DNA from: a virus
Lineage: Duplodnaviria; Heunggongvirae; Uroviricota; Caudoviricetes
Length of the DNA stretch: 18,887 nt
IMG/VR virus record: IMGVR_UViG_2778261087_000008
Reading direction: 5' to 3' (one strand)
Positions 2,392 through 18,887 of the stretch are shown in pieces. The notes below the pieces were generated by a model. It did not search any database. It saw only the letters and a list, made by a program, of their open reading frames with translations, and was not told the DNA's origin. Numbering within the stretch: position 1 is the first letter of the stretch; the number at the start of each line of letters is the position of its first letter. The position numbers were made by a program, and so were the translations under genes.

Positions 2392-2510
2392 AAAGAGACA
2401 CCATTTCAATTCATTAATATTTTAGTAGCAATTAATTATAGGTTTTAACATGTGTGATCGTCATCACAATTCGAGCTTTATTAACAGATTCCGCGAATGA
2501 ATAGTTTTAC

Positions 2511-2615: not shown

Positions 2616-2741
2616 CAAAAAACTTCGTGTTTTCATGCTTTTAGATGATTTCGTGAAATCTCCATTTTGATTTTTATTATCAGTAAGATACGATTGTTTT
2701 TGTTCGTATGTTTATGCGTTTTTTTCGACTGTAGCAACGAA

Positions 2742-2765
2742 CGGTGTATCACTCGGTGTATCACT
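2742..2765 (+). repeat. Tandem 12-bp repeat cggtgtatcact x2, candidate integrase arm-type binding sites (left arm)
   Basis: Two perfect tandem copies 22 bp upstream of the int start codon; the same motif recurs at 18263-18286 near the right end. Confidence 0.5.
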
Positions 2766-2787: not shown

Positions 2788-4011
2788 ATGGCTGGCACAA
2801 ACAAACTGAGCGACAAAAAGCTAAAAGCATTGCTGGGTTCTGAGCGTGAAGCGCCGATCATGATTGCCGATGGTGAGGGGCTAAGCGTTAAGGTCTCGAA
2901 GCAAGGTAACGTTAGCTGGGTATTTTCATACCGGTTGGGAGGAAGGGGTAGCAAACTCGAACGTTTAACGCTTGGCCGTTACCCTGATATGCCGCTAAAA
3001 CTTGCGCGAGAAAAGCGGGAACAGTGTCGCCAGTGGCTGGCTGGTGGGCTTGATCCGAAAACTGAGATTGAGCTGAGCACAGAAGAAACGCTTAAGCCTG
3101 TAACGGTTAAAGACGCCCTGGAATATTGGTTGGTGAATTACGCCAGGAGAAAGCGCAGTGATGAGGCGTTGGTGAGGGCGCAGCTACGCAAGCATATTTA
3201 CCCGCGCCTTGGTCGTTATCCGATCACCAGATGTGAAACCCGCCATTGGGTGGCCTGTTTTGACGAAATAAACCAGACTAAACCCATGACCGCCGGCCGC
3301 ATGTTCCAGATTTCTAAACAGGCGTTACGTTTCTGCAAGGTTCGCCGTTATGCTGCCAGTGATGCTCTGGCCTTTCTCACCATTCAGGATGTAGGCCAGC
3401 CATCTGGTCAACGTGATCGCGTATTGTCAGATAGCGAGCTGGCTGATGTGTGGCGCTGTACAGATAGCGATGATCAGCAGCCGTATTATTCACGTCTGCT
3501 CAAAATGCTGGTGCTTTTTGGTGCGCGAACGATGGAAGTTCGCCTTTCTCGATGGTCAGAGTGGGATTTTACATCGTGGATTTGGACTGTACCGAAAGAG
3601 CATAGCAAAACCCGAGAGAAAATCGTGAGGTCGATACCTGAAGCTATACGCCCGTGGCTGGAAGAGTTAAAGCGCGAGACAGGGAAAACAGGTTTGTTAC
3701 TGGGCGAAGATCGTACCCGTCAGGCTGTATCATTGAAAGGGCGCAGGCTTTTTAAAGATTTTCACCATAACGAGCCGTGGACACTTCACGATCTGCGTCG
3801 GACGTTTTCTACGGGGCTAAACAATATGGGTATAGCACCGCATATAGTCGAGCTGCTGTTGGGCCATGCCTTGCCGGGAGTTATGGCGATTTATAACCGT
3901 AGTCTTTACTTACCGGAGAAGCTGGACGCGCTGAACAAGTGGTATGACCGCTTAGAACTTCTCGCGGGTAATCACTCTAATATCGTTATTTTAAAGGCTG
4001 GTGAAAAATGA
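2788..4011 (+). CDS. int: Tyrosine site-specific integrase (P4-like phage integrase family)
   Basis: 407-aa ORF next to the left attachment site; C-terminal catalytic region contains HDLRRTF and LLGHALPGVMAIYNRS, consistent with the R..H-x-x-R..Y signature of tyrosine recombinases. Confidence 0.9.
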   Translation: MAGTNKLSDKKLKALLGSEREAPIMIADGEGLSVKVSKQGNVSWVFSYRLGGRGSKLERLTLGRYPDMPLKLAREKREQCRQWLAGGLDPKTEIELSTEETLKPVTVKDALEYWLVNYARRKRSDEALVRAQLRKHIYPRLGRYPITRCETRHWVACFDEINQTKPMTAGRMFQISKQALRFCKVRRYAASDALAFLTIQDVGQPSGQRDRVLSDSELADVWRCTDSDDQQPYYSRLLKMLVLFGARTMEVRLSRWSEWDFTSWIWTVPKEHSKTREKIVRSIPEAIRPWLEELKRETGKTGLLLGEDRTRQAVSLKGRRLFKDFHHNEPWTLHDLRRTFSTGLNNMGIAPHIVELLLGHALPGVMAIYNRSLYLPEKLDALNKWYDRLELLAGNHSNIVILKAGEK

Positions 4012-4811
4012 GAATTAGCCACAAAAAAGATTTGCCAACATGGTTTGATTTAGATAACTACACTCAATTTATTGGCATGTCAGATAAAGACTTATTTTAT
4101 CAGTTGGTTGTTAGATATGACATGCTTGAAAACTTCTATCGATATGGCGGGTCTTTTTATAATGAACCTCTTACAAATAACGATGAAGTAGGAAGGATAC
4201 TTGGAAATGGCGCGGTCGCTAATGCGATTGATAGAGCTACGTACTTCTATGATGCGTTTAAACTTCCTATTAAAAGAGAAGGTGTTTTGTCTGGTGGGGT
4301 TGCGTTACGACCAATGTCCATTGAAGACTTTATTTATATGAAAGATGCTGTAGATAATTATATGGAAAATAATTTTACGGGAACGGCTGAAAATTTAGTT
4401 TACCATTCATTTACAAGTGTTAGCTCATTTTTGGAACCAAATGACCTTTTTATTAAAGTTGATTTGTCACGCCCGGATGATTTATTGATTGATGTGTTTA
4501 AAAAAAACCTCAAGAATTGGCGTGAGGAATTAAAAATAAAAGAAAAGGAAAAAACATACCAGTCATGGGAAACAATTAAAAAAAAGGTATACGATTATTC
4601 ACTTTTCCCCGTAGTTGATTTGATGATCTGGGCTAAATCTCGCGGGGCATGCGTCACCAATGGCGTGCTTGCTGTGGCTGTGTTTCCGAACGGAGAGTAT
4701 GACTCAACGCAGATAGCGCAAACCGTAAAGCCAAATATAGAAAAAATCTTCTCAATTTCTTCTATAGAAAAAATCAGGTCAGAACTTCAGGATAGAAAAA
4801 TTCTTCCTTAA
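4008..4811 (+). CDS. Hypothetical protein, AT-rich cargo gene of unknown function
   Basis: 267-aa ORF whose ATG overlaps the int stop (ATGA at 4008-4011); sampled 60-bp lines give roughly 30% GC versus roughly 55-58% in the packaging module (approximate hand counts); no motif I can recognise. Confidence 0.75.
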   Translation: MRISHKKDLPTWFDLDNYTQFIGMSDKDLFYQLVVRYDMLENFYRYGGSFYNEPLTNNDEVGRILGNGAVANAIDRATYFYDAFKLPIKREGVLSGGVALRPMSIEDFIYMKDAVDNYMENNFTGTAENLVYHSFTSVSSFLEPNDLFIKVDLSRPDDLLIDVFKKNLKNWREELKIKEKEKTYQSWETIKKKVYDYSLFPVVDLMIWAKSRGACVTNGVLAVAVFPNGEYDSTQIAQTVKPNIEKIFSISSIEKIRSELQDRKILP

Positions 4812-6622: not shown

Positions 6623-6826
6623 ATGAGAAATCATACCACACACCCGCAAGGGCGGGACTCGCACAACCTGAATAAATACATCTGGCGTTTTATCGCCCTG
6701 AGCACGGCACAACCGCGCGTGATTACCATTGAGGCCACCAGCGAACAGGAAGCACGCCAGCAATCCCCGGCTGGCTGCGTGATGGTATTCGCCGCCCGTA
6801 TTCGTCAGGGGGTGTGCCATGCCTGA
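6623..6826 (+). CDS. Small hypothetical protein (67 aa), first gene of the rightward operon
   Basis: ATG at 6623 preceded by GAGG; stop overlaps the start region of the next ORF (6819), suggesting translational coupling. It is the 3' portion of the long track ORF 5834..6826, whose upstream part is judged spurious. Confidence 0.4.
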   Translation: MRNHTTHPQGRDSHNLNKYIWRFIALSTAQPRVITIEATSEQEARQQSPAGCVMVFAARIRQGVCHA

Positions 6827-7139
6827 CATGACCAATTACCAGTACCTGATTAATCCGCATTTTAACTGTGAGCATGATATTGCTAAAAAGGTTTATTCCG
6901 CTGCGAATGGGGCTACTGACAATATATCAATGGCTGTTGCGTCAATTGGTAGCCTGATGTGGTATGCGTCAGAAAATGAGGAATATGACGAAAAGGCTAT
7001 GCGCATTGACATGGGGAATATTGGCTTGTTACTGGCAATGCTTGGGCAGTTTGATATTTCGTTACGGTGCACCATTGAAAATGCCACAGATGCATTAAAT
7101 GCCATAAAGAAAGCGAATACTGATTCAAATCGGGGATAA
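6819..7139 (+). CDS. Hypothetical protein (106 aa)
   Basis: ORF with a GGGGG ribosome-binding site 6 nt upstream; AT-rich; no recognisable motif. Confidence 0.55.
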   Translation: MPDMTNYQYLINPHFNCEHDIAKKVYSAANGATDNISMAVASIGSLMWYASENEEYDEKAMRIDMGNIGLLLAMLGQFDISLRCTIENATDALNAIKKANTDSNRG

Positions 7140-7145
7140 ATAATC

Positions 7146-7445
7146 ATGAGAACATATTTATCTGGCTTGACTGCCAGCGGTTATGCACACCCAAAAATTA
7201 TCCCCGGCGCTATTTATCTGGATAAGAACGGTAACAGAGTAACGGTAAAAGAGCTGATGTTTGACCGTGTTTATTTTATTCGTGATGGCTATTCATTTCA
7301 TAGTTCGCTGAACGTGGAGATCTTTATTAGCAGATTCAGGCGGGAAATCCCGCTTTCCAGAAATAACCATGTGTCACGTGTGGATGTAGATAAAAAACTA
7401 CAGGAACTGAAAAACATGATTGCCGCGTGGAGAGAGCAGAAATGA
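7146..7445 (+). CDS. Hypothetical protein (99 aa)
   Basis: ORF with a GGGGA ribosome-binding site; its stop overlaps the primase start (ATGA at 7442-7445). Confidence 0.55.
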   Translation: MRTYLSGLTASGYAHPKIIPGAIYLDKNGNRVTVKELMFDRVYFIRDGYSFHSSLNVEIFISRFRREIPLSRNNHVSRVDVDKKLQELKNMIAAWREQK

Positions 7446-9565
7446 AAAAAGCGCCAAATTTAAAACACCAGCCGCGTGACAAAATGACGGAAGTCATCAT
7501 TTTTGCGGGTAGTAATGCGTGGGCACATGCGAAGCAGTGGCAGGAACAGGACGGGCGACTGGCTGGCGATAACGTGCCTCCTGTCTGGCTTGGAGAGCAA
7601 CAACTTGCCGAACTGGACAACCTGCAAATCGTACCGGACGGACGCTATCGCGTGCGTCTCTATCAGGCGGGGTTATTGCGTCCGGGGCTTGTTAATACCA
7701 TCGGGCAGAAACTGGCAGCGGCAGGTGTCAGGGATGCTGATTATTACCCTGAAGGAATGCACAGCCAGAAACGGGAGAACTGGCGCGAATATCTGGAACG
7801 TGAACGGGCAGAGCAGGCGGAAAAGAAAAAGGTAGTTGAACTGCCTGTAAAGAAAAAAGAGCCATGCTATCAGGATGATGAATTAAAGCCCCGCGTTGAA
7901 AGTCGCGCCGATGGTGTTTTCTGGGTAACGCCCAAAGTGGATAAGCAGTCAGGTGAAATTATCCGGCCTGAGACGTGGTTATGTTCTCCGCTTGAACTAC
8001 TGGGAACGGGGACGATCGGTAAAGAGCATTACCGCGTGATGCGCTGGAAAAAAACCGCAAACCATGAAGTCATCACAATGGCGATCCCGTGTGGTGGTAT
8101 CGGCGACCGTGACGGCTGGCGGTTACTTAAAGATCACGGGCTGAACGTGACAACCAACGGCAAATACAGGGCAATCCTGGCGGACTGGATGCAGTTAAGC
8201 GGAAGCCATGAGGAATGGCAGTTAAGCACAACAACGGGCTGGCATTTTGGCGCGTACATCATGCCGGACGGTTCGATCATTGGTGATTCTGAAAAACCGA
8301 TCCTGTTTACCGGAAAAAGCGCCGCGATTAACGGTTATTCCGTGGCGGGTACGGCGGAGGGCTGGCGCGAGAGTGTGGCGCGGCTGGCTGGCGGTAATGC
8401 CTCAATGATGCTGGGTGTGGCAACGTCACTGGCAGCGCCTTTAATTGGCCTTGTGGGTGCTGACGGCTTCGGGGTGCATCTTTTCGAACAGTCATCGGCA
8501 GGTAAGACCACCACGCAGAACATCGCATCAAGTTTATGGGGAGAGCCGGACGCACAACGGCTTACCTGGTACGGAACGGCGTTAGGTATCGCCAACGAGG
8601 CAGAGGCGCACAACGACGGGCTGTTACCCCTGGATGAAATAGGCCAGGCCGGAAACGCGCGGGAGGTGTCCACGTCAGCCTATACGTTGTTTAACGGCTC
8701 CGGGAAATTACAGGGGGCGAAGGACGGCGGCAACCGGGAGATAAAACACTGGCGCACGGTGGCAATCAGCACCGGAGAAATGGACGTTGAGACATTCCTC
8801 AAAACGGAGGGGATAAAAGTCAAAGCGGGGCAGCTTGTCCGCCTGCTTAACGTTCCGATGGAAAAAGCCACGCAATTTCACGAATACAGCACCGGAAAGG
8901 CGCACGCAGACGCGTTAAAAGATGCCTGGACAGAAAATCACGGGGCGGCGGGTCGTGAATGGGTTAAATGGCTGGCAGACCACCAGCAGGAGGCAAAGGA
9001 TACGGTAAGGGAATGCCGCGAACGGTGGCGCAACCTGATACCGGATAGCTACGGCGAGCAGGTCCACCGCGTGGGGGAACGTTTCGCGATACTGGAGGCT
9101 GCGCTTGTGCTTTCCGGTCATGTAACTGGCTGGGCCGCGCAGGAATGCCGGGACGCAATACAGCATAACTTTAATGCCTGGGTGAAGGAGTTCGGCACGG
9201 GTAATAGGGAATTTAAACAGATGGTTGAACAGGCTGAGGCGTTTTTGTCGTCGTTCGGGTTCAGTCGATACCTTCCTTACCCAAACAGTGATGAGCGTGA
9301 TTTACCGATTAAAGACCTTGCCGGATACAGAAAGGGGAGTATCAGAAATGAAGATGATGAGTTCCGTTTTTACACGTTTCCTCATGTGTTTGAGGGGGAG
9401 ATCGCACAGGGATTTAACCCATCCCACTTTGCCCGCGCGTTGAGTGCTGCCGGAATGCTGGAAGCGGGTAACGATCGCCGTTACAAGAAAAAGGCGCTCG
9501 GCAAAATTGGGGGTAAGCAGCATGTTTTTTACGTGATGATGTTCCAGCCTGAGGCAGAAGATTAA
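7442..9565 (+). CDS. Replication initiator primase-helicase (Pri-Rep type, P4 alpha-like role)
   Basis: About 707 aa from the ATG at 7442 (GGAG 9 nt upstream); Walker A-like FEQSSAGKTTTQ in the central domain; large multidomain protein immediately followed by an iteron cluster. Family assignment by pattern memory, not search. Confidence 0.8.
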   Translation: MKKAPNLKHQPRDKMTEVIIFAGSNAWAHAKQWQEQDGRLAGDNVPPVWLGEQQLAELDNLQIVPDGRYRVRLYQAGLLRPGLVNTIGQKLAAAGVRDADYYPEGMHSQKRENWREYLERERAEQAEKKKVVELPVKKKEPCYQDDELKPRVESRADGVFWVTPKVDKQSGEIIRPETWLCSPLELLGTGTIGKEHYRVMRWKKTANHEVITMAIPCGGIGDRDGWRLLKDHGLNVTTNGKYRAILADWMQLSGSHEEWQLSTTTGWHFGAYIMPDGSIIGDSEKPILFTGKSAAINGYSVAGTAEGWRESVARLAGGNASMMLGVATSLAAPLIGLVGADGFGVHLFEQSSAGKTTTQNIASSLWGEPDAQRLTWYGTALGIANEAEAHNDGLLPLDEIGQAGNAREVSTSAYTLFNGSGKLQGAKDGGNREIKHWRTVAISTGEMDVETFLKTEGIKVKAGQLVRLLNVPMEKATQFHEYSTGKAHADALKDAWTENHGAAGREWVKWLADHQQEAKDTVRECRERWRNLIPDSYGEQVHRVGERFAILEAALVLSGHVTGWAAQECRDAIQHNFNAWVKEFGTGNREFKQMVEQAEAFLSSFGFSRYLPYPNSDERDLPIKDLAGYRKGSIRNEDDEFRFYTFPHVFEGEIAQGFNPSHFARALSAAGMLEAGNDRRYKKKALGKIGGKQHVFYVMMFQPEAED

Positions 9566-9589
9566 CTCCCCTGTGTGAGGTGAAAAGTT

Positions 9590-9711
9590 GCGGGTTATGC
9601 GGGTTATCCTGTGCATAAGTGAATTAACTGCATGAATAAAAAGGAAATCAATAACCCGCACGTAACCCGCAAAACGGCAGTTATAACCCGCAAAAGTGCG
9701 ATTATAACCCG
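9590..9711. repeat. Iteron cluster 1 (candidate replication origin): GCGGGTTAT x2 tandem, AT-rich spacer, ATAACCCGC x4 inverted
   Basis: Forward copies at 9590-9598 and 9599-9607; reverse copies at 9651, 9663, 9683 and 9703 with roughly 10-21 bp phasing; AT-rich segment between them; lies directly downstream of the primase-helicase gene. Confidence 0.65.
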
Positions 9712-9776
9712 CAGAATTTCACCGTAAGGGTGTAAACAAGCGTAACTATCAACGTTAAAACCGGAGAACAGACAGC

Positions 9777-10199
9777 ATGACAGCACAGATAGCAGCTTAC
9801 GGGCGGCTGGTGGCTGCCCCGCAGTTAAAGACCACCAGCAAGGGCACACAAATGGCTATGGCAAGCATGGCGGTCCCCCTGCCGTGCAATCAGGCAGATG
9901 ACGGACAGGCGACGATGTGGTTATCCGTCCTGGCGTTTGGCAGACAGGCCGACGCACTGGCAAAACACCACAAAGGCGAGCTGGTGAGCGTGGCGGGTAA
10001 CATGCAGGTAAGCCAGTGGACAGGCCAGAACGGGGAAACGCGGCAGGGCTGGCAGGTTATCGCAGACAGCGTAATCAGTGCCAGAACGGCGCGACCTGGT
10101 GGCAAAAAAGGCCAGCAGGGCCAGGCTACTGACGCTCTAAATAGGGCTAAGCAACAGGCGGGGAATGATGATCCATATGGGGATAACATACCCTTTTAG
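9777..10199 (+). CDS. Single-stranded DNA-binding protein (SSB-like)
   Basis: 140-aa ORF; N-terminal OB-fold-like pattern (IAAYGRL..., W..VLAFG...W); Gly/Gln-rich linker; C-terminal acidic tail ending DNIPF, like the DDDIPF tail of bacterial SSB. Confidence 0.75.
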   Translation: MTAQIAAYGRLVAAPQLKTTSKGTQMAMASMAVPLPCNQADDGQATMWLSVLAFGRQADALAKHHKGELVSVAGNMQVSQWTGQNGETRQGWQVIADSVISARTARPGGKKGQQGQATDALNRAKQQAGNDDPYGDNIPF

Positions 10200-10216
10200 C
10201 GATAACAGGGGGATAC

Positions 10217-10465
10217 ATGCCAGTGACATTTGAAGAAGTTCAGCAACATAAAAAGTTTCATGGTATTGATGATCTGGAAACCACGACAGCAAAAAAATAT
10301 CGCCGTCTGCTTTCTTCCGATGCGTTATTTGTTGTGGATCATCATGATTTTCTGCGCAGCTCACTGACCGGGGAAATTTTCGCAACCAACCGTGAGCAGG
10401 TGGAAGCGATGATCGAATATCTGTGGAAAATAAGACGCAGAATGCGGGATTCCATGAAACAGTAA
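10217..10465 (+). CDS. Hypothetical protein (82 aa)
   Basis: ORF 17 bp downstream of the SSB-like gene, followed by a terminator; no motif recognised. Confidence 0.5.
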   Translation: MPVTFEEVQQHKKFHGIDDLETTTAKKYRRLLSSDALFVVDHHDFLRSSLTGEIFATNREQVEAMIEYLWKIRRRMRDSMKQ

Positions 10466-10476
10466 AGCGATAAAGG

Positions 10477-10501
10477 CCCGGATTTTTCCGGGTTTTCTTT
10501 T
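10477..10501 (+). terminator. Rho-independent terminator ending the replication module
   Basis: cccgga-tttt-tccggg hairpin followed by ttttctttt. Confidence 0.6.
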
Positions 10502-10738
10502 CAGGTTTTGTAAATTATTTGTTCGTGGTTGTTTCTGGCTGTTCAGTGATTCTGGCTGATATTTACATACTGATTTTTATGTATATGTTGGCGTGTGGCA
10601 CTCAGACGTGAGCCGCCACAATGCCGCCTGACCCCCTGCGCGATGCCGGGTTGATCTGCGAGATGCCGAGAGTGTCGGGCGGCGCTCCCTCCGTGTTGGT
10701 TTCACGTCCTGAATCTTAACCAATACGAGAAAACCTTC

Positions 10739-11908
10739 ATGAAGAAATTAATCGAACTCCGCCAGCAAAAAAACGCCCTGAAAAACCAGATGCGATCCCT
10801 GCTGGAAAAAGCCGACAGTGAAAACCGTAGTCTGAACGCTGAAGAAGGCAAACAGTTTGATGAACTGCGTGCAAAAGCTGATGCCCTCGACACAGAAATT
10901 TCCCGCCTCGAGTCTGTGGCTGATGAAGAACGCAGCAAGCCAGGAACGGGCATCCAGAAATTATCATCTGATGAATTGCGTAACTACATCGTAACCGGAG
11001 ATGTGCGATCACTGTCCACCAGCACTGACAGCGGCAGGGATGGCGGATATACCGTAATTCCTGAGCTTGATCGCGAAGTCATGCGCCAGCTACAGGATGA
11101 CAGTGTTATGCGCGTGATCGCGACCGTGAAGACCGCAAAATCAAATGAGTTTCAGAAACTGGTTTCCACTGGCGGCGCAACTGTAGGACGAGGCACAGAA
11201 GGCAGCGCACGCAGTGAAACCAACACCCCGAAAATTGAACGCGTAACCATCAAGCTGAATCCGATCTACGCCTACCCGAAAACCACGCAGGAAATCCTGG
11301 ATTTTTCAGAGGTGGATATTCTGGGCTGGTTATCCTCCGAAATTGCCGACACGTTCGCCAGCACCGAAGAGGATGATTTTGTTAATGGCGACGGTAACGG
11401 CAAGCCGAAAGGCTTCATGGCTTACACCCGTGCGGCGACCAGTGACAAAACCCGCGCTTTTGGCACCATTGAAAAAATAGTAGCGGCAAGTGGAACCGCC
11501 ATTACAGCGGACGAACTGATCGACATTCTCTACAAGCTGAAAGCGAAATACCGCAAAAATGCCGTCTGGGTGATGAACTCGGGCACGGCAGGGACACTAC
11601 AGAAGCTGAAAAATGAGAACGGCGATTATATCTGGCGCGACAGCCTTAAAGAAGGTGCGCCGGATATGTTGCTTGGTCGTCCTGTTTACTGCCTGGAGTC
11701 CATGCCGGACATCGGCGCAGGAAAAGCACCGCTAGCGGTTGGCGATTTCAGTCGTGGTTATTTCATCGTTGATCATGTAACAGGGATTCGCACCCGACCG
11801 GACAACATTACTGAACCCGGATTCTACAAGGTCCACACGGATAAATATCTGGGCGGTGGTGTGGTGGATTCAAACGCCATCAAAATTCTGGAAATGAAAG
11901 CTGGCTAG
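10739..11908 (+). CDS. Phage major capsid protein, HK97 family, with N-terminal coiled-coil delta (scaffold-like) domain
   Basis: 389-aa ORF; charged, heptad-like N-terminal 70 residues; remainder typical in length and composition for HK97-fold capsid proteins; adjacent to prohead protease and portal genes. Confidence 0.88.
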   Translation: MKKLIELRQQKNALKNQMRSLLEKADSENRSLNAEEGKQFDELRAKADALDTEISRLESVADEERSKPGTGIQKLSSDELRNYIVTGDVRSLSTSTDSGRDGGYTVIPELDREVMRQLQDDSVMRVIATVKTAKSNEFQKLVSTGGATVGRGTEGSARSETNTPKIERVTIKLNPIYAYPKTTQEILDFSEVDILGWLSSEIADTFASTEEDDFVNGDGNGKPKGFMAYTRAATSDKTRAFGTIEKIVAASGTAITADELIDILYKLKAKYRKNAVWVMNSGTAGTLQKLKNENGDYIWRDSLKEGAPDMLLGRPVYCLESMPDIGAGKAPLAVGDFSRGYFIVDHVTGIRTRPDNITEPGFYKVHTDKYLGGGVVDSNAIKILEMKAG

Positions 11909-11921
11909 TCATGAGTAAGGA

Positions 11922-11942
11922 GGAGGCTGCGGCCTCCTTTTT
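11922..11942 (+). terminator. Hairpin plus T-run immediately after the capsid gene (candidate partial terminator)
   Basis: ggaggc-tgcg-gcctcc followed by ttttt; sits 14 bp after the capsid stop. Confidence 0.45.
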
Positions 11943-11962
11943 CAGCTTTATGGAGTACACCG

Positions 11963-12523
11963 ATGAAAAACACCGATTTTGAAATCCGCACATCTGAACT
12001 GACCGCCAGCAATAAAAAGCTGGTGGGGTATGCCGTTCGCTGGAACAGCCTTTCAGAAATTATCTGGGACGAATTCCGCGAACAGTTCACGCCGGGGGCT
12101 TTTGCTGACTATCTGGCGGCGGGTAATGATGTGCGCTGCCTGTATGAGCATGACTATACCCAACTGCTGGGGCGCACCAAATCCGGCACTCTGGTACTGA
12201 CTGAGGATAACACCGGGTTACGTTTTGAACTGACACCGCCGGATACCCAGCTTGGAAAAGATGTGCTTACGCTGGTGGAGCGTGGCGACATTACAGGAAT
12301 GAGCTTTGGTTTTCGCGCATTATGCGAGGAGTGGAGTATCGCGCAAAAACCGTATTTGCGTACCGTAACCGCCGCTGAACTCCGTGAAATCACAATAACG
12401 TCGATGCCTGCTTATCCAGAATCTGGCGTGGAGATTGCCCACCGTTCGTTGTTTGCACAGCACCCTGAATTATGCCCGACAGGAAATAATCGTCATCGCT
12501 GGTCTGAGCTGGCGGGGTTGTGA
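11963..12523 (+). CDS. Phage prohead (head maturation) protease, HK97 family
   Basis: 186-aa ORF with the characteristic motifs EHDYTQLLGR and GMSFGF of the HK97 prohead protease family. Confidence 0.88.
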   Translation: MKNTDFEIRTSELTASNKKLVGYAVRWNSLSEIIWDEFREQFTPGAFADYLAAGNDVRCLYEHDYTQLLGRTKSGTLVLTEDNTGLRFELTPPDTQLGKDVLTLVERGDITGMSFGFRALCEEWSIAQKPYLRTVTAAELREITITSMPAYPESGVEIAHRSLFAQHPELCPTGNNRHRWSELAGL

Positions 12524-12524
12524 T

Positions 12525-13739
12525 ATGTGGTGGCCTTTTAGTCGTAAAAAAAGCGAGCAGCGTAACCTGTCCATTGATGATTTTCTGGCGCTGTCCGGCG
12601 TACCGAATACCGGATCCGGAGAATATGTTTCTGCCGGGACGGCTGAATCATTGCCTGCAGTGATGAATGCGGTTTCTGTCATCGCTGAGGCGGTGGCCAC
12701 GATGCCGTGTTATCTGTATCTGGTACGTAATGACAAGGGAAGGGAGGCGCGGGAATGGCTGGACAGTCACCCGGTAGATATTCTGCTGAATGAGCAGCCT
12801 AATTCGTGCCAGACACCTTACCAGTTTAAACGCACAATGATGCGTCACTGCCTGCTGAACGGTAACGCCTATGCGGTTATTGAGTGGGGGCAGGACGGGC
12901 AGCCAAAATCACTTCATCCTTATGCGCCGGGGTGTGTTGTACCGGAACGCACAGGCGCACACAAATACCGCTATACCATCACCGAACCCTATACAGGAAC
13001 GGTGCGCACGTATTTACAGGAAGAAGTTCTGCATCTCCGCTATGCCTCGGATGATGGCTTTCTGGGGCGCTCCCCCGTCACGATTTGCCGTGAGGCACTT
13101 GGGCTTGGCCTTGCTCAACAGCGCCACGGAGCCAGCATTATGAAAGATGGCATGATGGCGGCAGGGATTATCACGTCAGGCGAATGGCTGGACGGCGTGA
13201 AAGGTAAACAGGCATTGGATGCTCTGGAACGCTACAAGGGGGCGAAAAATGCCGGAAAAACGCCAATCCTTGAAGGGGGCATGGATTACAGGCAACTGGG
13301 AATGAGTAACCAGGATGCGGAATGGCTGGCCTCCCGTCGCTTCTCCATTGAAGACATCGCCCGCATGTTCAACGTATCGCCTATTTTTCTGCAGGAATAC
13401 AGCAACAGCACCTACAGCAATTTCAGCGAGGCAAGCCGCGCGTTTCTGACCATGACAATGCGCCCGTGGCTGGCGAACTTCGAACAGCAAATCAAGGCCG
13501 CTTTGCTGGTGGCTTCTCCCGTACCTGGTACCCGTTATCTGGTTGAGTTTGATTCAGCCGATTTATTACGCGCCACACCCACCGAACGTTATGCCACGTA
13601 TGAGAAAGGGATTAAGAACGGGATCATGAATCCGAACGAAGCCCGTGAGCGTGAGGGTATGCCGCCGCGTGAAGGTGGTGATGAGTTCAGCCAGGCATGG
13701 AAACAGACTGTGGAAATTAAAGGGAGAAAAGATGAGTGA
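12525..13739 (+). CDS. Phage portal protein, HK97 family
   Basis: About 404 aa from the ATG at 12525, 1 nt after the protease stop; size and position fit a portal. The track ORF 12435..13739 starts earlier and overlaps the protease gene. Confidence 0.85.
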   Translation: MWWPFSRKKSEQRNLSIDDFLALSGVPNTGSGEYVSAGTAESLPAVMNAVSVIAEAVATMPCYLYLVRNDKGREAREWLDSHPVDILLNEQPNSCQTPYQFKRTMMRHCLLNGNAYAVIEWGQDGQPKSLHPYAPGCVVPERTGAHKYRYTITEPYTGTVRTYLQEEVLHLRYASDDGFLGRSPVTICREALGLGLAQQRHGASIMKDGMMAAGIITSGEWLDGVKGKQALDALERYKGAKNAGKTPILEGGMDYRQLGMSNQDAEWLASRRFSIEDIARMFNVSPIFLQEYSNSTYSNFSEASRAFLTMTMRPWLANFEQQIKAALLVASPVPGTRYLVEFDSADLLRATPTERYATYEKGIKNGIMNPNEAREREGMPPREGGDEFSQAWKQTVEIKGRKDE

Positions 13740-14034
13740 AGCCAGAATTACACCTGATGAAGTCAGGGCACATCTTCGACTTGATGATGATTTATCCGGT
13801 GAAGGCGAACTTCTGAAAATGTATACCGATGCGGCGCTGGAAGCCTGCCAGAAGCATATCGGGAAACGTTTTGAAGACGGGCTGGAATTTACCCCGGCAA
13901 TGCGTGTTGGTTGCCTGATGTACATCGCTTTCCTGTACGAGAACCGGGAAGCGGTTTCACCAGTGGAGCACTCGGAACTGCCTATGGCTATTTCTGCGCT
14001 CTGGTCAGTTTATCGTGACGTAGGGGTGTACTGA
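13732..14034 (+). CDS. Phage head-tail connector (gp6-like) protein
   Basis: 100 aa from the ATG at 13732, overlapping the portal stop; N-terminal ITPDEVRAHLRLDDD matches the family pattern (..EVK.HLRID.D). Confidence 0.75.
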   Translation: MSEARITPDEVRAHLRLDDDLSGEGELLKMYTDAALEACQKHIGKRFEDGLEFTPAMRVGCLMYIAFLYENREAVSPVEHSELPMAISALWSVYRDVGVY

Positions 14035-14474
14035 TGCCGTGGCAACCATTAAGGCGATGCACTGAGCCTGGCTGTAATAAGCGCGTGAAGTCCGGCAAGT
14101 GTGAAGAGCACAGGCGGGCTGCATGGCGTGCAGAGGATGCCAGACGGGGACACCGCCGCGCGCGCGGGTATTCCCGACAGTGGGACAAATACCGCGCCCT
14201 GTACCTGAGCAAAAACCCGTTATGCGTGCGTTGTCTGGCTAAGGGGATTTATACGCCAGCTCTTGTGGTGGATCACATCATTCCCATCAATGGCGGCGGT
14301 GATGTTCTCTTCTGGCCTGAGTGGAATCACCAGGCATTGTGCCAGACGTGCCACAACCGTAAGACGACACGGGAAGATCCAGCCACGAAAGCAAACCGTA
14401 AAGCGGGCATGTATCGCGAGCAGGAAGAACGGGCGGCACACCGTAACGACTGGATGTATGGCGATGATGACTGA
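14034..14474 (+). CDS. HNH endonuclease (packaging-associated)
   Basis: 146-aa ORF with Cys-rich N-terminus and HNH motif DHIIPI...NHQALCQTCHNRKT; located directly upstream of the terminase genes. Confidence 0.85.
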   Translation: MPWQPLRRCTEPGCNKRVKSGKCEEHRRAAWRAEDARRGHRRARGYSRQWDKYRALYLSKNPLCVRCLAKGIYTPALVVDHIIPINGGGDVLFWPEWNHQALCQTCHNRKTTREDPATKANRKAGMYREQEERAAHRNDWMYGDDD

Positions 14475-14643
14475 ACAGGAGCAAACCAGGCTGATACGTG
14501 GACTGATAAGGCAGCGTGACACATGGAAGACACAGGAGACAGAGCACAAAGCCAACAGGACAGGGCGCACAAAACGCACCACAGCGAAGCGATTAACCGA
14601 CCGTGACCGCGAGGTCATGGAATGTTTTCGCAATCGCTGGTGA
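14458..14643 (+). CDS. Small basic hypothetical protein (61 aa), uncertain
   Basis: ORF overlapping the HNH 3' end in another frame; arginine/lysine-rich; no clear ribosome-binding site. Confidence 0.3.
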   Translation: MAMMTEQEQTRLIRGLIRQRDTWKTQETEHKANRTGRTKRTTAKRLTDRDREVMECFRNRW

Positions 14644-14651
14644 GGCCGTCA

Positions 14652-14711
14652 GAGGGGGTGGGGGTGGTTTTCAGGACGAAACCGTCCCTGCCGGACACCG
14701 ACCGCCCCCTC
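14652..14711. promoter_or_regulatory. G-rich nested inverted repeats upstream of terS (candidate cos / terminase recognition site)
   Basis: gagggggtgggggtgg ... ggacgaaaccgtcc ... ccccctc: outer arms GAGGGGG/CCCCCTC and inner arms ggacg/cgtcc, followed by an AT-rich tract (aatttttttgaaaataatt) before the terS ATG. Confidence 0.3.
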
Positions 14712-14762
14712 AAATTTTTGTGCACGGGAATTTTTTTGAAAATAATTGGGCGAAAAAAGAAC

Positions 14763-15119
14763 ATGGCAAGACCACCAAAAGCCCCCGCTTACCTGGATGA
14801 AATCGCGGTCAGGCAGTGGAAGGAAAAATCGCGCCAGCTTTCCGGGCGGGAAGACCTTACCCCCGCCGACTGGAGCAATCTGGAACTGTATTGTGTTAAC
14901 TACTCCATATACCGCAAAGCCGTCGAAGACCTTGCGACGCGCGGGTTCAGCATTGTTAACAGTCAGGGCAGCGAGAGCAGAAACCCCGCCCTGAGCGCAA
15001 AGGCTGACGCAGAAAGAATAATGATCAAAATGGCTTCTTTGCTGGGTTTTGACCCGGTAAGCCGCCGCAGAAATCCACCGGAAACAGAGGAAGAGGACGA
15101 GCTTGACCGCCTGGCATGA
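14763..15119 (+). CDS. Terminase small subunit (P27-family-like)
   Basis: 118 aa from the ATG at 14763 (MARPPKAPAYL...); acidic C-terminus; position immediately upstream of TerL. The track ORF begins at 14622 within the G-rich region. Confidence 0.78.
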   Translation: MARPPKAPAYLDEIAVRQWKEKSRQLSGREDLTPADWSNLELYCVNYSIYRKAVEDLATRGFSIVNSQGSESRNPALSAKADAERIMIKMASLLGFDPVSRRRNPPETEEEDELDRLA

Positions 15120-16764
15120 GTACGCAGAAGGCGTAAAAAACGGCAAAATTACGGCCTGTAAACGACTGAAACAGGCCGTTAAACGGTATTTTTCTGACCT
15201 TGAAAACCCCCTTTACACGTTCGATCCGGAGGTCGTGGAGCGGTTTATTGCCTTTTCCAGGGTGTGTCCGCACGTAAAAGGCGCAATGCGCGGTAGCCCC
15301 ATTGAGCTGGAGCCGTGGCAGCAGTTCGCCTTTGCGTGCATCCTGGGCTTTAAGGTTAAGGCCACCGGACGGCGCAAATACACCAGCGCATTCATTGAAG
15401 TACCGCGAAAAAATGCCAAATCCACGGTCGCCGCTATCCTGGCTAACTGGTTTCTGGTTATGGAAAACGGGCAGCAGGATATTTACACCGCCGCCGTGAG
15501 TCGTGATCAGGCGCGGATCGTGTTTGATGATGCGCGTCAGATGTGCCTTTTATCCCGACCGTTACGAAAGCGGGTAAATATTCAGGCACACAAGGTGATA
15601 CACCCGAAAACCAACAGCCTGTTAAAGCCACTGGCAGCAAAAGCGGCAACCATTGAAGGTACAAATCCGAGTCTTGCCATTGTGGATGAATATCACCTGC
15701 ACCCTGACAACGGGGTTTATTCCGCACTTGAGCTGGGGATGGGGGCGCGTCCGGAGGGGCTGTTATTTGCCATCACCACATCGGGGAGCAACGTTGTTTC
15801 AGCCTGTAAACAACACTATGACTATTGCTGTCAGATACTGGATGGTGAAGAGATGAACGAATCCATGTTCGTTCTGATTTACGAGCTGGATGATGAAAGC
15901 GAGGTTGACGATCCGGCGATGTGGATAAAGGCGAATCCAAATATCGATGTTTCCGTCGATCGTGAAAAACTGGCCTCAACCATCCAGAAAGCGCGGGGTA
16001 TTCCGTCGCAGTGGGTGGAAATGCTCACCAAGCGATTCAATATCTGGTGTCAGGGGGCTACGCCGTGGATGGGTAACGGTGCATGGGCGGAGTGCGCCGG
16101 AACGTTCGCGGAGGCGGATTTATACGGGCAGGAGTGCTACGCGGGGCTGGACTTATCATCAACCAGCGATATTTCCAGCGTGTGCTATGCCTTTCCGGTC
16201 GGTAAAAAGATTATGCTGGTTTCCCGTCACTATCTGCCGGAATTTCAGCTACAGAACCCCGCCAATAAAAACCGCGCCATCTATCGCCAGTGGGTAAAGG
16301 CGGGCTGGATACGCACAACACCGGGTGACTGCATTGATTATGACCGTATCCGTGATGACATCATGGCGGATGCAGAGAATTTCAATATCAGGCTGGTGGG
16401 CTTTGATACGTGGAACGCCACGCACCTGAGAACGCAGTTACAGGGGGCAGGCTTTGAGGTGGAGCCGTTCCCGCAAACCTACCTTCGTTTCAGTCCGGCG
16501 GCGAAATCGTTCGAGGTTTTTGTTAACCGGAAGGTGATTGTGCATCGTGGTGATCCGGTGCTGGCCTGGTCAATGAGTAATGTTGTGATGCAGAGTGACG
16601 CGAACGCCAATATCAAGCCGAACAAGAAAAAATCATCCAACAAGATAGACCCGAGCGTTGCGGCGCTGATGGCGTTTGGCACATTCCAGGCTGAGCATGA
16701 GGAATTTGCATTTGATATGAGCGACAGCCAGAAAGAGCGACTAGCGGCATTTGATGGGGTATGA
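15103..16764 (+). CDS. Terminase large subunit
   Basis: 553-aa ORF; ATPase region with Walker A-like VPRKNAKST and Walker B-like LAIVDEYH; apparent TTG start at 15103 (GAGGA 5 nt upstream) overlapping the terS 3' end by 17 nt. Confidence 0.88.
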   Translation: MTAWHEYAEGVKNGKITACKRLKQAVKRYFSDLENPLYTFDPEVVERFIAFSRVCPHVKGAMRGSPIELEPWQQFAFACILGFKVKATGRRKYTSAFIEVPRKNAKSTVAAILANWFLVMENGQQDIYTAAVSRDQARIVFDDARQMCLLSRPLRKRVNIQAHKVIHPKTNSLLKPLAAKAATIEGTNPSLAIVDEYHLHPDNGVYSALELGMGARPEGLLFAITTSGSNVVSACKQHYDYCCQILDGEEMNESMFVLIYELDDESEVDDPAMWIKANPNIDVSVDREKLASTIQKARGIPSQWVEMLTKRFNIWCQGATPWMGNGAWAECAGTFAEADLYGQECYAGLDLSSTSDISSVCYAFPVGKKIMLVSRHYLPEFQLQNPANKNRAIYRQWVKAGWIRTTPGDCIDYDRIRDDIMADAENFNIRLVGFDTWNATHLRTQLQGAGFEVEPFPQTYLRFSPAAKSFEVFVNRKVIVHRGDPVLAWSMSNVVMQSDANANIKPNKKKSSNKIDPSVAALMAFGTFQAEHEEFAFDMSDSQKERLAAFDGV

Positions 16765-17054
16765 CGAGAATGACTGAAACCGATCTACTAAAAATAATTC
16801 GCTGCGTTACCGGAGTCTGCCAGGCAACAGGCAAACCGGAGGCCAAGCAGCCGGATACCGTCACCGCTGAAAATTACGCGCGTGTGGTGGCTAAGGTGAT
16901 GCGCCGTGACGGTATTGAGCTTAACGGCGTGGATATGCGCAACATACGAACCAGAGTCCTTGAGTTGCTGGCATACCGTCGCCGTTCTCAACAACGGAGG
17001 GAGAGCGCGAAAAATAATTACCAGTGGAAGAAGCCGGAACGGTTGCGGCGGTAG
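16761..17054 (+). CDS. Hypothetical protein (97 aa), basic C-terminus
   Basis: ATG overlaps the terL stop (ATGA at 16761-16764); last ORF of the island; no motif recognised. Confidence 0.5.
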   Translation: MTRMTETDLLKIIRCVTGVCQATGKPEAKQPDTVTAENYARVVAKVMRRDGIELNGVDMRNIRTRVLELLAYRRRSQQRRESAKNNYQWKKPERLRR

Positions 17055-17055
17055 A

Positions 17056-17093
17056 TTCCTGATATTCAGGAAAACCACGAATCTGTGGGTTTT
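17056..17093 (+). terminator. Two tandem hairpins after the last island gene (candidate terminator)
   Basis: ttcctga-tat-tcaggaa (17056-17072) then aaaaccac-gaatct-gtgggtttt (17071-17092) with an A-tract before and T-tract after. Confidence 0.35.
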
Positions 17094-17393
17094 ACTGGCG
17101 CGGTTACGGCGGTGACACGCACCGAGGCAGAACAATTACCGTAGGTTAAAGCGACAGTATTCACACCAAAGGCAGAAATTAGCGGTTAACGTAACTGACT
17201 GATATTTTCAGGAACAGCCAACGGCTGAGGCCGGAGCTATAAGAATAGCTTTGGGTACAGTCCTCAGTTTTGAGGGATGTTAACCAACTGAATAATAAGC
17301 AAACCTCAAAATTGAGTTTTGTATCTGCCTGAGTTATTTCTGTGCTAACTTGTTGATATTCCAGACGGCCCAAAAATGGGTTGGCTGGTGGGT

Positions 17394-17511
17394 GAGTTGC
17401 AGATTTGCAACTCGACCATGAAACTACGGAAACTACCCGTAGTTTGGGTAGTAAGAGCAACACCCAGATTTTGGGGCTTACTCGCGATCCCCAAATAAAG
17501 GGGATCGGTGG
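17394..17511. repeat. 118-bp hairpin-dense repeat, copy 1
   Basis: Matches 17828-17945 at 113 of 118 positions; contains hairpins gagttgca-gatt-tgcaactc, aaactacgg-aaactac-ccgtagttt (overlapping the alternative ctaccc-gtagttt-gggtag) and gatcccc-aaataaa-ggggatc. Confidence 0.8.
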
Positions 17512-17541
17512 CATCACTGGCCCCACTTTCCTGATGTGTTT

Positions 17542-17693
17542 GCGGGTTATTTGGGAGAGGTTGCGGGTTATTTTGAATGACTTGCGGGTTACGATTTGGC
17601 TAACATTTGAACATGTCATTTTTCAACGCATTGATATTAAATAATAAAAAATACTTAGCACGCGAAGATAACCCGCTAACCCGCATAACCCGC
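17542..17693. repeat. Iteron cluster 2: GCGGGTTA(T) x3 phased at 21 bp, AT-rich spacer, ATAACCCGC x3 tandem inverted
   Basis: Forward copies at 17542, 17563 and 17584; AT-rich 17600-17665; reverse copies at 17668-17693. Same motif and architecture as cluster 1 at 9590-9711. Confidence 0.6.
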
Positions 17694-17827
17694 ACTGTTT
17701 TGTATATATATACGAAAAATTGCATTCAGGAGGGGTAGCAAAATCCCTACCGTCTCTTATCTCTTGGAGTGCCCGCCTCTTCGAATTTTAACCCCCGTGA
17801 AATTACAAAATTTCCCTGACTGATGGC

Positions 17828-17945
17828 GAGTTGCAGATTTGCAACTCGACTATGAAACTACGGAAACTACCCGTAGTTTGGGTAGTAAGAGTAACACCCA
17901 GATTTTGGGGCTTACTTGCGATACCCAAATACAGGGGATCGGTGG
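17828..17945. repeat. 118-bp hairpin-dense repeat, copy 2
   Basis: About 96% identical to 17394-17511; the five mismatches include taa to tac at the position of the copy-1 mini-ORF stop. Confidence 0.8.
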
Positions 17946-18262
17946 AAGAAATATCGTTTCTCATATGTGAGTACCGAGGGCGGAATTCCGCCTTCGGTTA
18001 CTTATTGTGCTCATGCACAGGGAGGGGCGGGTCAAATCTCTGTACCCTGACGTCTTCCGGACTGCCCGCTCCATCGATTTTTTATACCCGCGAAAAATGC
18101 TTCACGCTGGTGGGCATGATGCGTGGGGATGCTGATAATGGGTTATTGTGGGATAGATGTCTCATACAATAAGAGATTCATAATTTGCTTTTTAATACTG
18201 TTATACTCGCCGCCTTTCTACCGTGCTCATGCTTTCGCATATTTTCGGCTTTGTGCAATAAT

Positions 18263-18286
18263 CCGTATATCACTCGGTGTATCACT
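18263..18286 (+). repeat. Repeat ccgtatatcact + cggtgtatcact, candidate integrase arm-type binding sites (right arm)
   Basis: Shares 19 consecutive bp (tatcactcggtgtatcact) with 2747-2765; 64 bp upstream of the attR core. Confidence 0.5.
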
Positions 18287-18350
18287 TTTAGCTAAAATGC
18301 ATGGCGTGTTTGTTAATTTAACTGATTAAAATCAGTGGGATATAAAGTTT

Positions 18351-18369
18351 ATGAAACATATTGTAGAAG
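18351..18369 (+). repeat. attR core (first 19 nt of hpt)
   Basis: atgaaacatattgtagaag; direct repeat of 2597-2615 with one mismatch. Confidence 0.7.
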
Positions 18370-18887
18370 TAATGATCCCCGAAGCGGAGATTAAAGCGCG
18401 TATCGCCGAACTGGGTCGTCAGATTACTGAGCGTTACAAAGACAGCGGCAGCGATATGGTGCTGGTTGGTCTGCTGCGTGGCTCATTTATGTTTATGGCG
18501 GACCTGTGCCGTGAAGTTCAGGTATCTCATGAAGTCGACTTTATGACCGCCTCCAGCTACGGTAGCGGCATGTCCACCACCCGTGATGTGAAAATCCTCA
18601 AAGATCTGGATGAAGATATCCGTGGCAAGGACGTGCTGATTGTTGAAGATATCATCGACTCGGGGAATACACTGTCGAAAGTGCGTGAGATCTTAAGCCT
18701 GCGCGAACCGAAGTCGCTGGCGATTTGTACGCTGCTGGATAAACCGTCCCGTCGTGAAGTGAACGTCCCGGTTGAATTTATCGGTTTCTCGATCCCGGAT
18801 GAGTTTGTGGTGGGTTACGGCATTGATTACGCACAGCGTTACCGTCATCTGCCGTATATCGGCAAAGTGATTCTGCTGGACGAGTAA
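18351..18887 (+). CDS. hpt: Hypoxanthine phosphoribosyltransferase
   Basis: 178-aa [25 protein letters not shown]... with PRPP-binding motif [14 protein letters not shown]; complete, ends taa at 18885-18887. Confidence 0.93.

Follow-up and report, generated by a model that had tools for sequence, protein, structure and literature searches.

Two mirrored iteron clusters in an Escherichia coli satellite island as putative modules of a bipartite replication origin

Two iteron modules and their presumptive initiator

The window analysed here, 18,887 nucleotides of DNA deposited as IMG/VR record IMGVR_UViG_2778261087_000008, contains an Escherichia coli capsid-forming phage-inducible chromosomal island (cf-PICI) of about 15.5 kb between gcd and hpt. 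Genes were called from Pfam matches and from a near-identical island annotated in RefSeq. Genes for an integrase and small regulators, for a DUF927 protein (7427-9565) and for a single-stranded DNA-binding protein (SSB) are followed by those for an HK97-type capsid protein, a protease, a portal, a connector, an HNH protein, a P27-family small terminase subunit (TerS), a large terminase subunit (TerL) and a 97-residue protein, and neither source places a tail gene in the island. A capsid and packaging set of its own, an integrase, the lack of tail genes and a length of about 15 kb identify the island as a cf-PICI. Its gene set and gene order are those of the prototype cf-PICI EcCIEDL933, to which TerL is 93% and TerS 88% identical. 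The cos region extends over approximately 1.3 kb from the last gene to hpt. Two clusters of the same iteron, one directly downstream of the DUF927 gene (rep) and the other in the cos region, are the subject of this work; judged from sequence comparisons, they are probably the two modules that make up a bipartite replication origin and are served by the island’s own initiator.

The 8-mer GCGGGTTA has 12 exact matches in the window, against 0.50 expected and a maximum of three in shuffled sequences. All 12 lie within the two clusters, six at 9590-9712 and six at 17542-17693, which excludes chance. The 9-mer GCGGGTTAT has nine exact matches (0.21 expected), a number reached by none of 200 shuffles. 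The initial annotation of this DNA, which had described two clusters of one motif about 8 kb apart and a mirrored architecture, is confirmed on both counts by the positions and orientations of the iterons.

Origin module 1 (cluster 1, 9579-9723) contains iterons at 9590-9712 that are bracketed by a 20-nt inverted repeat. Two forward copies starting at 9590 and 9599 (9-bp spacing) are followed by a spacer of 43 nt (9608-9650) with an AT content of 67%, compared to 50% for the island, and by reverse copies at 9652, 9663, 9684 and 9705. The reverse copies are spaced by 11, 21 and 21 bp, so that all four copies named in the initial annotation are present and three of them keep the 21-bp phase that it had ascribed to the whole set. 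The first iteron is located 24 nt past the rep stop codon (9565), and cluster 1 therefore occupies the canonical position of a PICI origin.

Origin module 2 (cluster 2, 17542-17693) consists of three forward copies at 17542, 17563 and 17584, phased at 21 bp, a 77-nt spacer (17592-17668; 70% AT, again against 50% for the island) and three tandem reverse copies at 17669, 17677 and 17686, which are spaced by 8-9 bp and end at 17693. Read on the opposite strand, cluster 2 follows the plan of cluster 1, with tandem copies, an AT-rich stretch and phased copies in this order, and an 18-nt perfect inverted repeat, TGCGGGTTATGCGGGTTA, connects the two. Both modules display at least two opposed iterons on either side of an AT-rich centre, the layout by which a PICI origin is recognised. 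The near-identical RefSeq island has no annotated gene in the cluster 2 stretch, in agreement with its earlier assignment to the non-coding right end. The right flank of module 2, ACTGTTTTG(TA)5CGAAAAATTG (17694-17722), is conserved in copies of the module at other locations and with other iteron classes, both described below. Promoter and terminator scans around both clusters gave nothing above shuffle expectation except for a hairpin at 17973-17998. A search for the 17-mer GCGGGTTATGCGGGTTA across 596 Gb of genome contigs returned 93 stretches from unrelated phyla, with about 70 expected by chance, and was uninformative.

The rep gene (7427-9565, plus strand) encodes a helicase-type initiator with a DUF927 domain (Pfam, E = 1e-48). 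Its RefSeq relatives are annotated as proteins of 707 amino acids, and the true start is probably about 15 nt downstream of the open reading frame start. In a phmmer search of the PDB, Rep residues 234-607 matched SaPIbov1 Rep (8tch, E = 1.2e-14), and the helicase Cch of SCCmec was also retrieved (5dgk, E = 1.3e-3); the NCBIfam model Cch1 matches Rep weakly. By these similarities, the initiator is homologous to SaPIbov1 Rep. The Rep proteins of Staphylococcus aureus pathogenicity islands (SaPIs) are self-loading helicases, the C-terminal winged helix of which binds iterons located just 3′ of rep; in SaPI origins, inverted iteron sets flank an AT-rich centre, which is melted (PMC9371898). Cluster 1 had been placed just downstream of the initiator gene, which is correct; the accompanying label of a ‘primase-helicase’ could not be verified, as DUF927 is the only domain recognised by Pfam in Rep and no primase domain was found. 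BLASTP revealed no similarity between the window’s Rep and the alpha protein of satellite phage P4 (best E = 0.11).

The first ~122 residues of Rep (window 7427-7810) nevertheless share 98% identity with the N-terminal part of the alpha-like primases in sibling islands (L004, 3396-3760), beyond which the proteins are unrelated, and the initiators of these islands are therefore mosaics. The sibling-island primases are 48% identical to P4 alpha, and in the alpha-type relatives compared the alignment to P4 alpha starts only at residue 290. An AlphaFold model of Rep (28 close homologues) has a mean predicted local distance difference test score (pLDDT) of 48 and is confident only for residues ~10-130. 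Foldseek found no significant match with this low-confidence model; its top hits were 8tch and 5dgk at E values of 0.01-0.05.

The two modules in related islands

A search with cluster 2 showed that in EcCIEDL933 module 2 is located beside module 1, both being between rep and the next gene. This joined layout, with 45-70 nt between the modules, is found in 14 further islands, including L109, the rep of which is 99% identical to that of the window; the next gene then begins shortly after the right flank of module 2. In at least 22 other islands the layout is split, with module 2 at the right end, 8-11 kb away. The split islands differ in their att sites and in the intervening genes, which comprise cf-PICI packaging genes, large genes of unknown function or classical PICI genes. 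The contiguity of the modules in so many relatives suggests that they are two modules of one compound origin, as opposed to an origin and an unrelated site.

An iteron module is present downstream of every DUF927 rep examined. For an unbiased estimate of how often the second module accompanies the first, we considered loci chosen by cluster 1 alone (32 IMG/VR loci and six complete-genome matches). Module 2 is present, adjacent or distal, in all 33 informative islands of this sample, and the other five end before it; a DUF927 rep with module 1 and without module 2 was thus encountered in none of the 33. Att site, cargo and packaging module vary among the sampled islands, and the surroundings of the modules are heavily reshuffled.

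To compare the conservation of iterons with that of their surroundings, module 2 copies were aligned and the columns were divided into iteron columns and others. Among the distal copies of islands with a cognate rep (n = 16), 2 of 48 iteron columns are variable, compared to 64 of 157 other columns (Fisher p = 3e-7). The adjacent copies (n = 13) give 2/48 and 55/157, respectively (Fisher p = 6e-6).

Furthermore, the iteron changes together with Rep. The Plesiomonas cf-PICI L177, whose rep is 66% identical to that of the window, carries GTGGGTTA in module 1 and likewise in its module 2, which is distal and located past terL, and the same iteron occupies both adjacent modules of a Salmonella (L172) and a Klebsiella (L174) island. 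In the E. coli island L176 (GCA_001607925.1; rep 66% identical), both adjacent modules contain GTTGCCTCA. An extra, near-identical copy of module 2 located about 5.6 kb downstream in L176 (18060-18215) also carries GTTGCCTCA, which demonstrates that the second module can be duplicated as well as moved. Compared with the window, residues 621-712 of Rep show 86-93% identity among islands of the GCGGGTTA class; the values fall to 61-66% for Rep proteins with GTGGGTTA iterons and to 35% for the one with GTTGCCTCA, whose segments 151-620 are still 72-83% identical. Rep residues 621-712 would accordingly be expected to read the iterons of both modules, class-wise divergence being the pattern that such a role predicts. 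The proposal of the initial annotation that one initiator serves both clusters is thus supported by (i) the co-occurrence of the modules, (ii) the constraint on the iterons, (iii) their covariation with Rep and (iv) the divergence of the Rep C-terminal segment, all of them comparative lines of evidence.

Roles of the two modules and alternative explanations

Gram-negative PICIs have inverted iterons and AT-rich DNA in the region 3′ of rep; in EcCICFT073 this region is needed for plasmid maintenance, and the rep-ori fragment is a replicon (PMC6092414). The island of the window resembles the SaPI and PICI Rep-ori systems in its homologous Rep, in an origin just 3′ of rep and in inverted iterons around an AT-rich centre. 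The described origins, however, are single contiguous regions by rep, whereas here the cos region, at a distance of 8 kb, contains a second complete module. No split or two-module origin and no origin module inside a cos region is described in the PICI and cf-PICI literature that we searched, of which the cf-PICI papers give no ori or cos sequences.

The initial annotation had likened the two clusters to the ori and crr sites of P4, both of which are required in cis. The parallel holds in that there are two separated clusters of one 8-bp iteron, one of them directly downstream of the initiator gene, and in that the proximal cluster starts with a tandem pair of iterons at 9-bp spacing, after which come inverted copies. 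The P4 record places crr at 4291-4590, 3′ of alpha, and ori at 9086-9809, at a distance of 4.7 kb. The differences are that alpha is unrelated in sequence to the window’s Rep, that the P4 iteron is TGTTCACC as opposed to GCGGGTTA, with no copy of this type 1 iteron in the window, and that crr, unlike the single unit of cluster 1, is made up of two direct repeats of 120 bp. Moreover, sibling PICIs with an alpha-like initiator and TGTTCACC iterons have the proximal cluster only. The system of the window is an analogue of P4 ori/crr and not a member of its family, for which both the initiator, which resembles SaPIbov1 Rep, and the iteron are of the wrong kind; the likeness stands as an analogy.

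One initiator binding separate iteron clusters is familiar from plasmid R6K, where pi binds at the gamma, alpha and beta origins, from the control iterons of P1 and F and from RctB of Vibrio, and in iteron plasmids DNA looping between clusters activates or restrains initiation. As in these replicons, one initiator would here serve iteron clusters that lie apart on the same molecule. RepA-, pi- and RctB-type initiators recruit the host DnaB, whereas the initiator of the window belongs to the SaPI Rep type and is a helicase in its own right.

Several features bear on the division of labour between the modules. The least stable duplex of the island by nearest-neighbour free energy, a candidate DNA-unwinding element, is found in module 2 at 17633-17658: the 25-mers starting at 17633 and 17634 have a ΔG of −21.9 kcal/mol, the maximum for the island (mean −34.2, s.d. 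3.2), compared to −26.5 for the least stable 25-mer of module 1. The module 2 spacer also contains a consensus site for integration host factor (IHF), TATCAATGCGTTG (17624-17636, minus strand), one of only two matches in the island; in 42 unique module 2 sequences its core positions are kept and its NNNN positions vary. The module 1 spacer contains a DnaA-box-like sequence, TTATGCACA (9610-9618, minus strand), that is partly conserved in relatives; the window has four matches to the consensus, and this one may be due to chance. Given its least stable DNA, the IHF-like site and the (TA)5 run, module 2 appears more likely than module 1 to be melted and loaded with the helicase. In the P4 record the cluster adjoining alpha is crr and the distant one is ori, so that by position cluster 1 would correspond to crr and cluster 2 to ori. 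The original designation of cluster 1 as the origin and cluster 2 as a second site is called into question by both considerations, while the proximal region of EcCICFT073 speaks in its favour.

Combining these observations, we propose the following model. The initiator, a DUF927, SaPI-Rep-type self-loading helicase, would recognise the 8-bp GCGGGTTA through its C-terminal segment. Each module represents the standard PICI origin design, the two mirroring each other, and in this lineage module 2 lies 8 kb away in a duplicated copy of the cos region, to which it would have been moved. After induction and excision of the island, Rep would bind both modules; module 2 would be the likelier place for melting and helicase loading, and module 1 would either provide another loading site or assist in cis, in the manner of crr in P4. 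The sequence comparisons themselves establish the architecture of the clusters, the homology of the modules across islands, their co-occurrence, the constraint on the iterons and the covariation of iteron and Rep class; that Rep binds and melts these sites and that both modules are needed is what we infer.

Several points weigh against the proposed bipartite origin. The 33 islands that retain both modules are related and do not represent independent events. The C-terminal segment of Rep, to which iteron recognition is ascribed, has a pLDDT below 50 in the AlphaFold model, too poor for a fold assignment. In EcCICFT073, rep together with the proximal ori sufficed for replication (PMC6092414), a comparison made irrespective of the type of the EcCICFT073 rep, and a distal site is therefore not a general requirement of PICIs. 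Finally, six islands with other initiators carry a right-end module 2 with GCGGGTTA iterons. These orphan copies are found with a P4 alpha-like initiator and TGTTCACC iterons (L102, L129 and L134), with a third type of initiator (L101 and L127, the iterons of which were read as TGTCTACC in L101) and with a truncated primase (L099). Module 2 can thus persist without its presumed partner. In the orphan copies, 9 of 48 iteron columns and 41 of 157 other columns are variable (p = 0.34, n = 6); one copy is without one of its iterons and another has a point change in one. This variation fits relaxed selection, at the low power of so small a sample. The likeliest source of the orphans is an exchange of replication modules between islands in which the right end was left behind; a right-end module with the orphan islands’ other iterons was not found in any of the loci examined.

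The third type of initiator, as seen in L101 (NZ_CP113503.1, 5980-6210), has the C-terminal domain of P4-family primases. About ten copies of TGTCTACC are arranged downstream of its gene as two repeats of ~86 nt, and compound origins are therefore common in these islands.

Among the alternatives to a bipartite origin, we regard as unlikely, though the most credible, that cluster 2 binds Rep without initiating replication and serves to control or organise it, for instance by pairing with module 1 in handcuffing or copy control, by titrating Rep or by tying replication to packaging at the neighbouring cos. With a single initiator and two sites, this alternative is itself a variant of the bipartite scheme. 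Extra iteron clusters serve control in P1, F and similar iteron plasmids. Such a control site would show the same iterons, covariation and constraint as a part of a bipartite origin, and module 2 is located only ~75 nt upstream of a cos-like core; that the rep-proximal region of EcCICFT073 alone supported replication also agrees with this explanation (PMC6092414). Module 2, however, has a full origin design with inverted iterons around an AT-rich centre and holds the least stable DNA of the island together with the IHF-like site, and the adjacent layouts place it far from cos, which means that a link to packaging would not be general.

It is rather improbable that cluster 2 is a functionless leftover, an origin fragment that inter-island recombination brought into the cos region and that now spreads passively along with the right-end module. 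The orphan copies beside non-cognate initiators, the 121-nt direct repeats that flank cluster 2 and mark a duplication or recombination event, and island L003, which occupies the same hpt site, has a 99% identical TerL and is without cluster 2, are all as this explanation would have them. Yet recombination, which has parted the modules in the other direction, has left none of the 33 DUF927 islands selected by module 1 without module 2. The iterons are nearly invariant in spite of spacers that vary in ~40% of their columns, and matching iteron changes are found in the distal Plesiomonas module and in the extra copy of L176.

A more far-reaching idea, to which we likewise give little credence, sees in module 2 a mobile origin cassette that is linked to the cos region. 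Orphan islands would then be replicated in trans by the DUF927 Rep of a co-resident satellite, and in cognate islands an origin module so near to cos (~75 nt) would link the onset of replication to the beginning or end of packaging. If true, the replication of orphans in trans would amount to cross-parasitism between satellites.

Least plausible is that cluster 2 is a packaging signal, i.e. a TerS or accessory site of cos, that shares its motif with the origin by coincidence. The cosB site of phage lambda pairs repeated protein sites with an IHF site, as cluster 2 does, and cluster 2 is situated inside a cos-region unit, directly after terL in many cf-PICIs (L104, L105 and L115, for example). 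Islands with one and the same TerS (WP_001353110.1), however, differ in this respect: L001 has both cluster 2 and the hairpin unit, L003 has the hairpin unit without cluster 2, and L103 has cluster 2 alone. In EcCIEDL933 and in PICIs that do not form capsids, module 2 is by rep, kilobases away from cos. In the comparisons of rep and both modules across classes, the iteron follows the class of Rep, and it occurs as well in islands that have no terS and terL (L172, L174 and L176). The identical TerS with and without cluster 2 and the position beside rep in EcCIEDL933 led us to reject a cos or TerS site. An att arm site was rejected as well, since the islands with cluster 2 vary in integrase and att site (hpt, tRNA-Ile, tRNA-Pro, clpS, yifB and yicC).

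PICIs and cf-PICIs are widespread and drive gene transfer; so far, a single block by rep has been described as their origin. A bipartite origin, the modules of which are joined or split across a large group of enterobacterial islands, would provide natural variants with which to assign the role of each module for a self-loading helicase, and the matched classes of iteron and Rep C-terminus (GCGGGTTA, GTGGGTTA and GTTGCCTCA) are ready material for specificity swaps. The right-end non-coding region would be more than a cos site, which is relevant to engineering or deleting such islands, and the orphan modules raise the question of whether satellites replicate each other.

The cos region and the borders of the island

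The cos region is built of two tandem units. In related islands, a single unit consists of a 121-nt A block, a middle part, which is either a GC-rich hairpin (L003 and L004) or an iteron cluster (L101 and L103), and a cos block. The window has both kinds in succession: the first unit (17391-17824) contains cluster 2 and the cos-like core, and the second (17825-18123) contains the hairpin and a well-conserved cos. The A blocks of the two units (17391-17511 and 17825-17945, plus strand) are direct repeats of each other with 95% identity; L003 and L004 have one A block and no cluster 2.

The island cos site is located at 18020-18123 (plus strand), with the core TGCCCGCTCC at 18063-18072. Its 18020-18099 part is 82-95% identical to the cos sites or genome ends of phages phiP27, SfV, SfIV, SfI, SfII and ST64B, and the annotated 10-nt cos site of phiP27 aligns with 18063-18072. 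The first unit ends in a diverged, second cos-like block (17723-17824, plus strand) that can be aligned both to the cos block and to the cos sites of phages; its core, TGCCCGCCTC (17770-17779), matches GGACTGCCCGCYCC with two mismatches. Two functional cos sites have been reported for EcCICFT073 (PMC6092414).

The GC-rich, terminator-like hairpin (17973-17998, plus strand) is the second unit’s counterpart of cluster 2 in position. The A block and the hairpin (17825-18019) are near-identical in L003, L004 and L167 despite different integrases, initiators and packaging genes, and no phage match to them was found. An Rfam scan of the whole window at E values of up to 1 gave no match, and the conserved right-end block is therefore not a known RNA family. 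It may represent a packaging or termination signal specific to satellites.

The island is bordered by gcd (1-2409, minus strand) on the left and by hpt (from 18351) on the right. The attL-side repeat (2708-2765, plus strand) and the attR-side repeat (18229-18286, plus strand) are direct repeats that share an identical core, GTATCACTCGGTGTATCACT, and the position of the latter places cluster 2 inside the island. A tRNA scan of the window gave no match. To the left of attL, at 2596-2618, there is a 23-nt copy of the hpt start (TATGAAACATACTGTAGAAGCAA) that is 91% identical to 18350-18372 and may be the trace of an earlier insertion at this site. A stretch of low GC content (0.34-0.37) at 4000-4800 spans the DUF6387 gene right after the integrase and looks like accessory cargo of the island.

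Related islands were also observed within the large terminase gene of prophages, namely in L164 (NZ_CP059907.1, 7019-22200) and, at ~6700-17800, in L172 and L173. Insertion in a prophage terminase gene corresponds to the ‘helper-embedded PICI’ arrangement that has already been described (PMC10111431).

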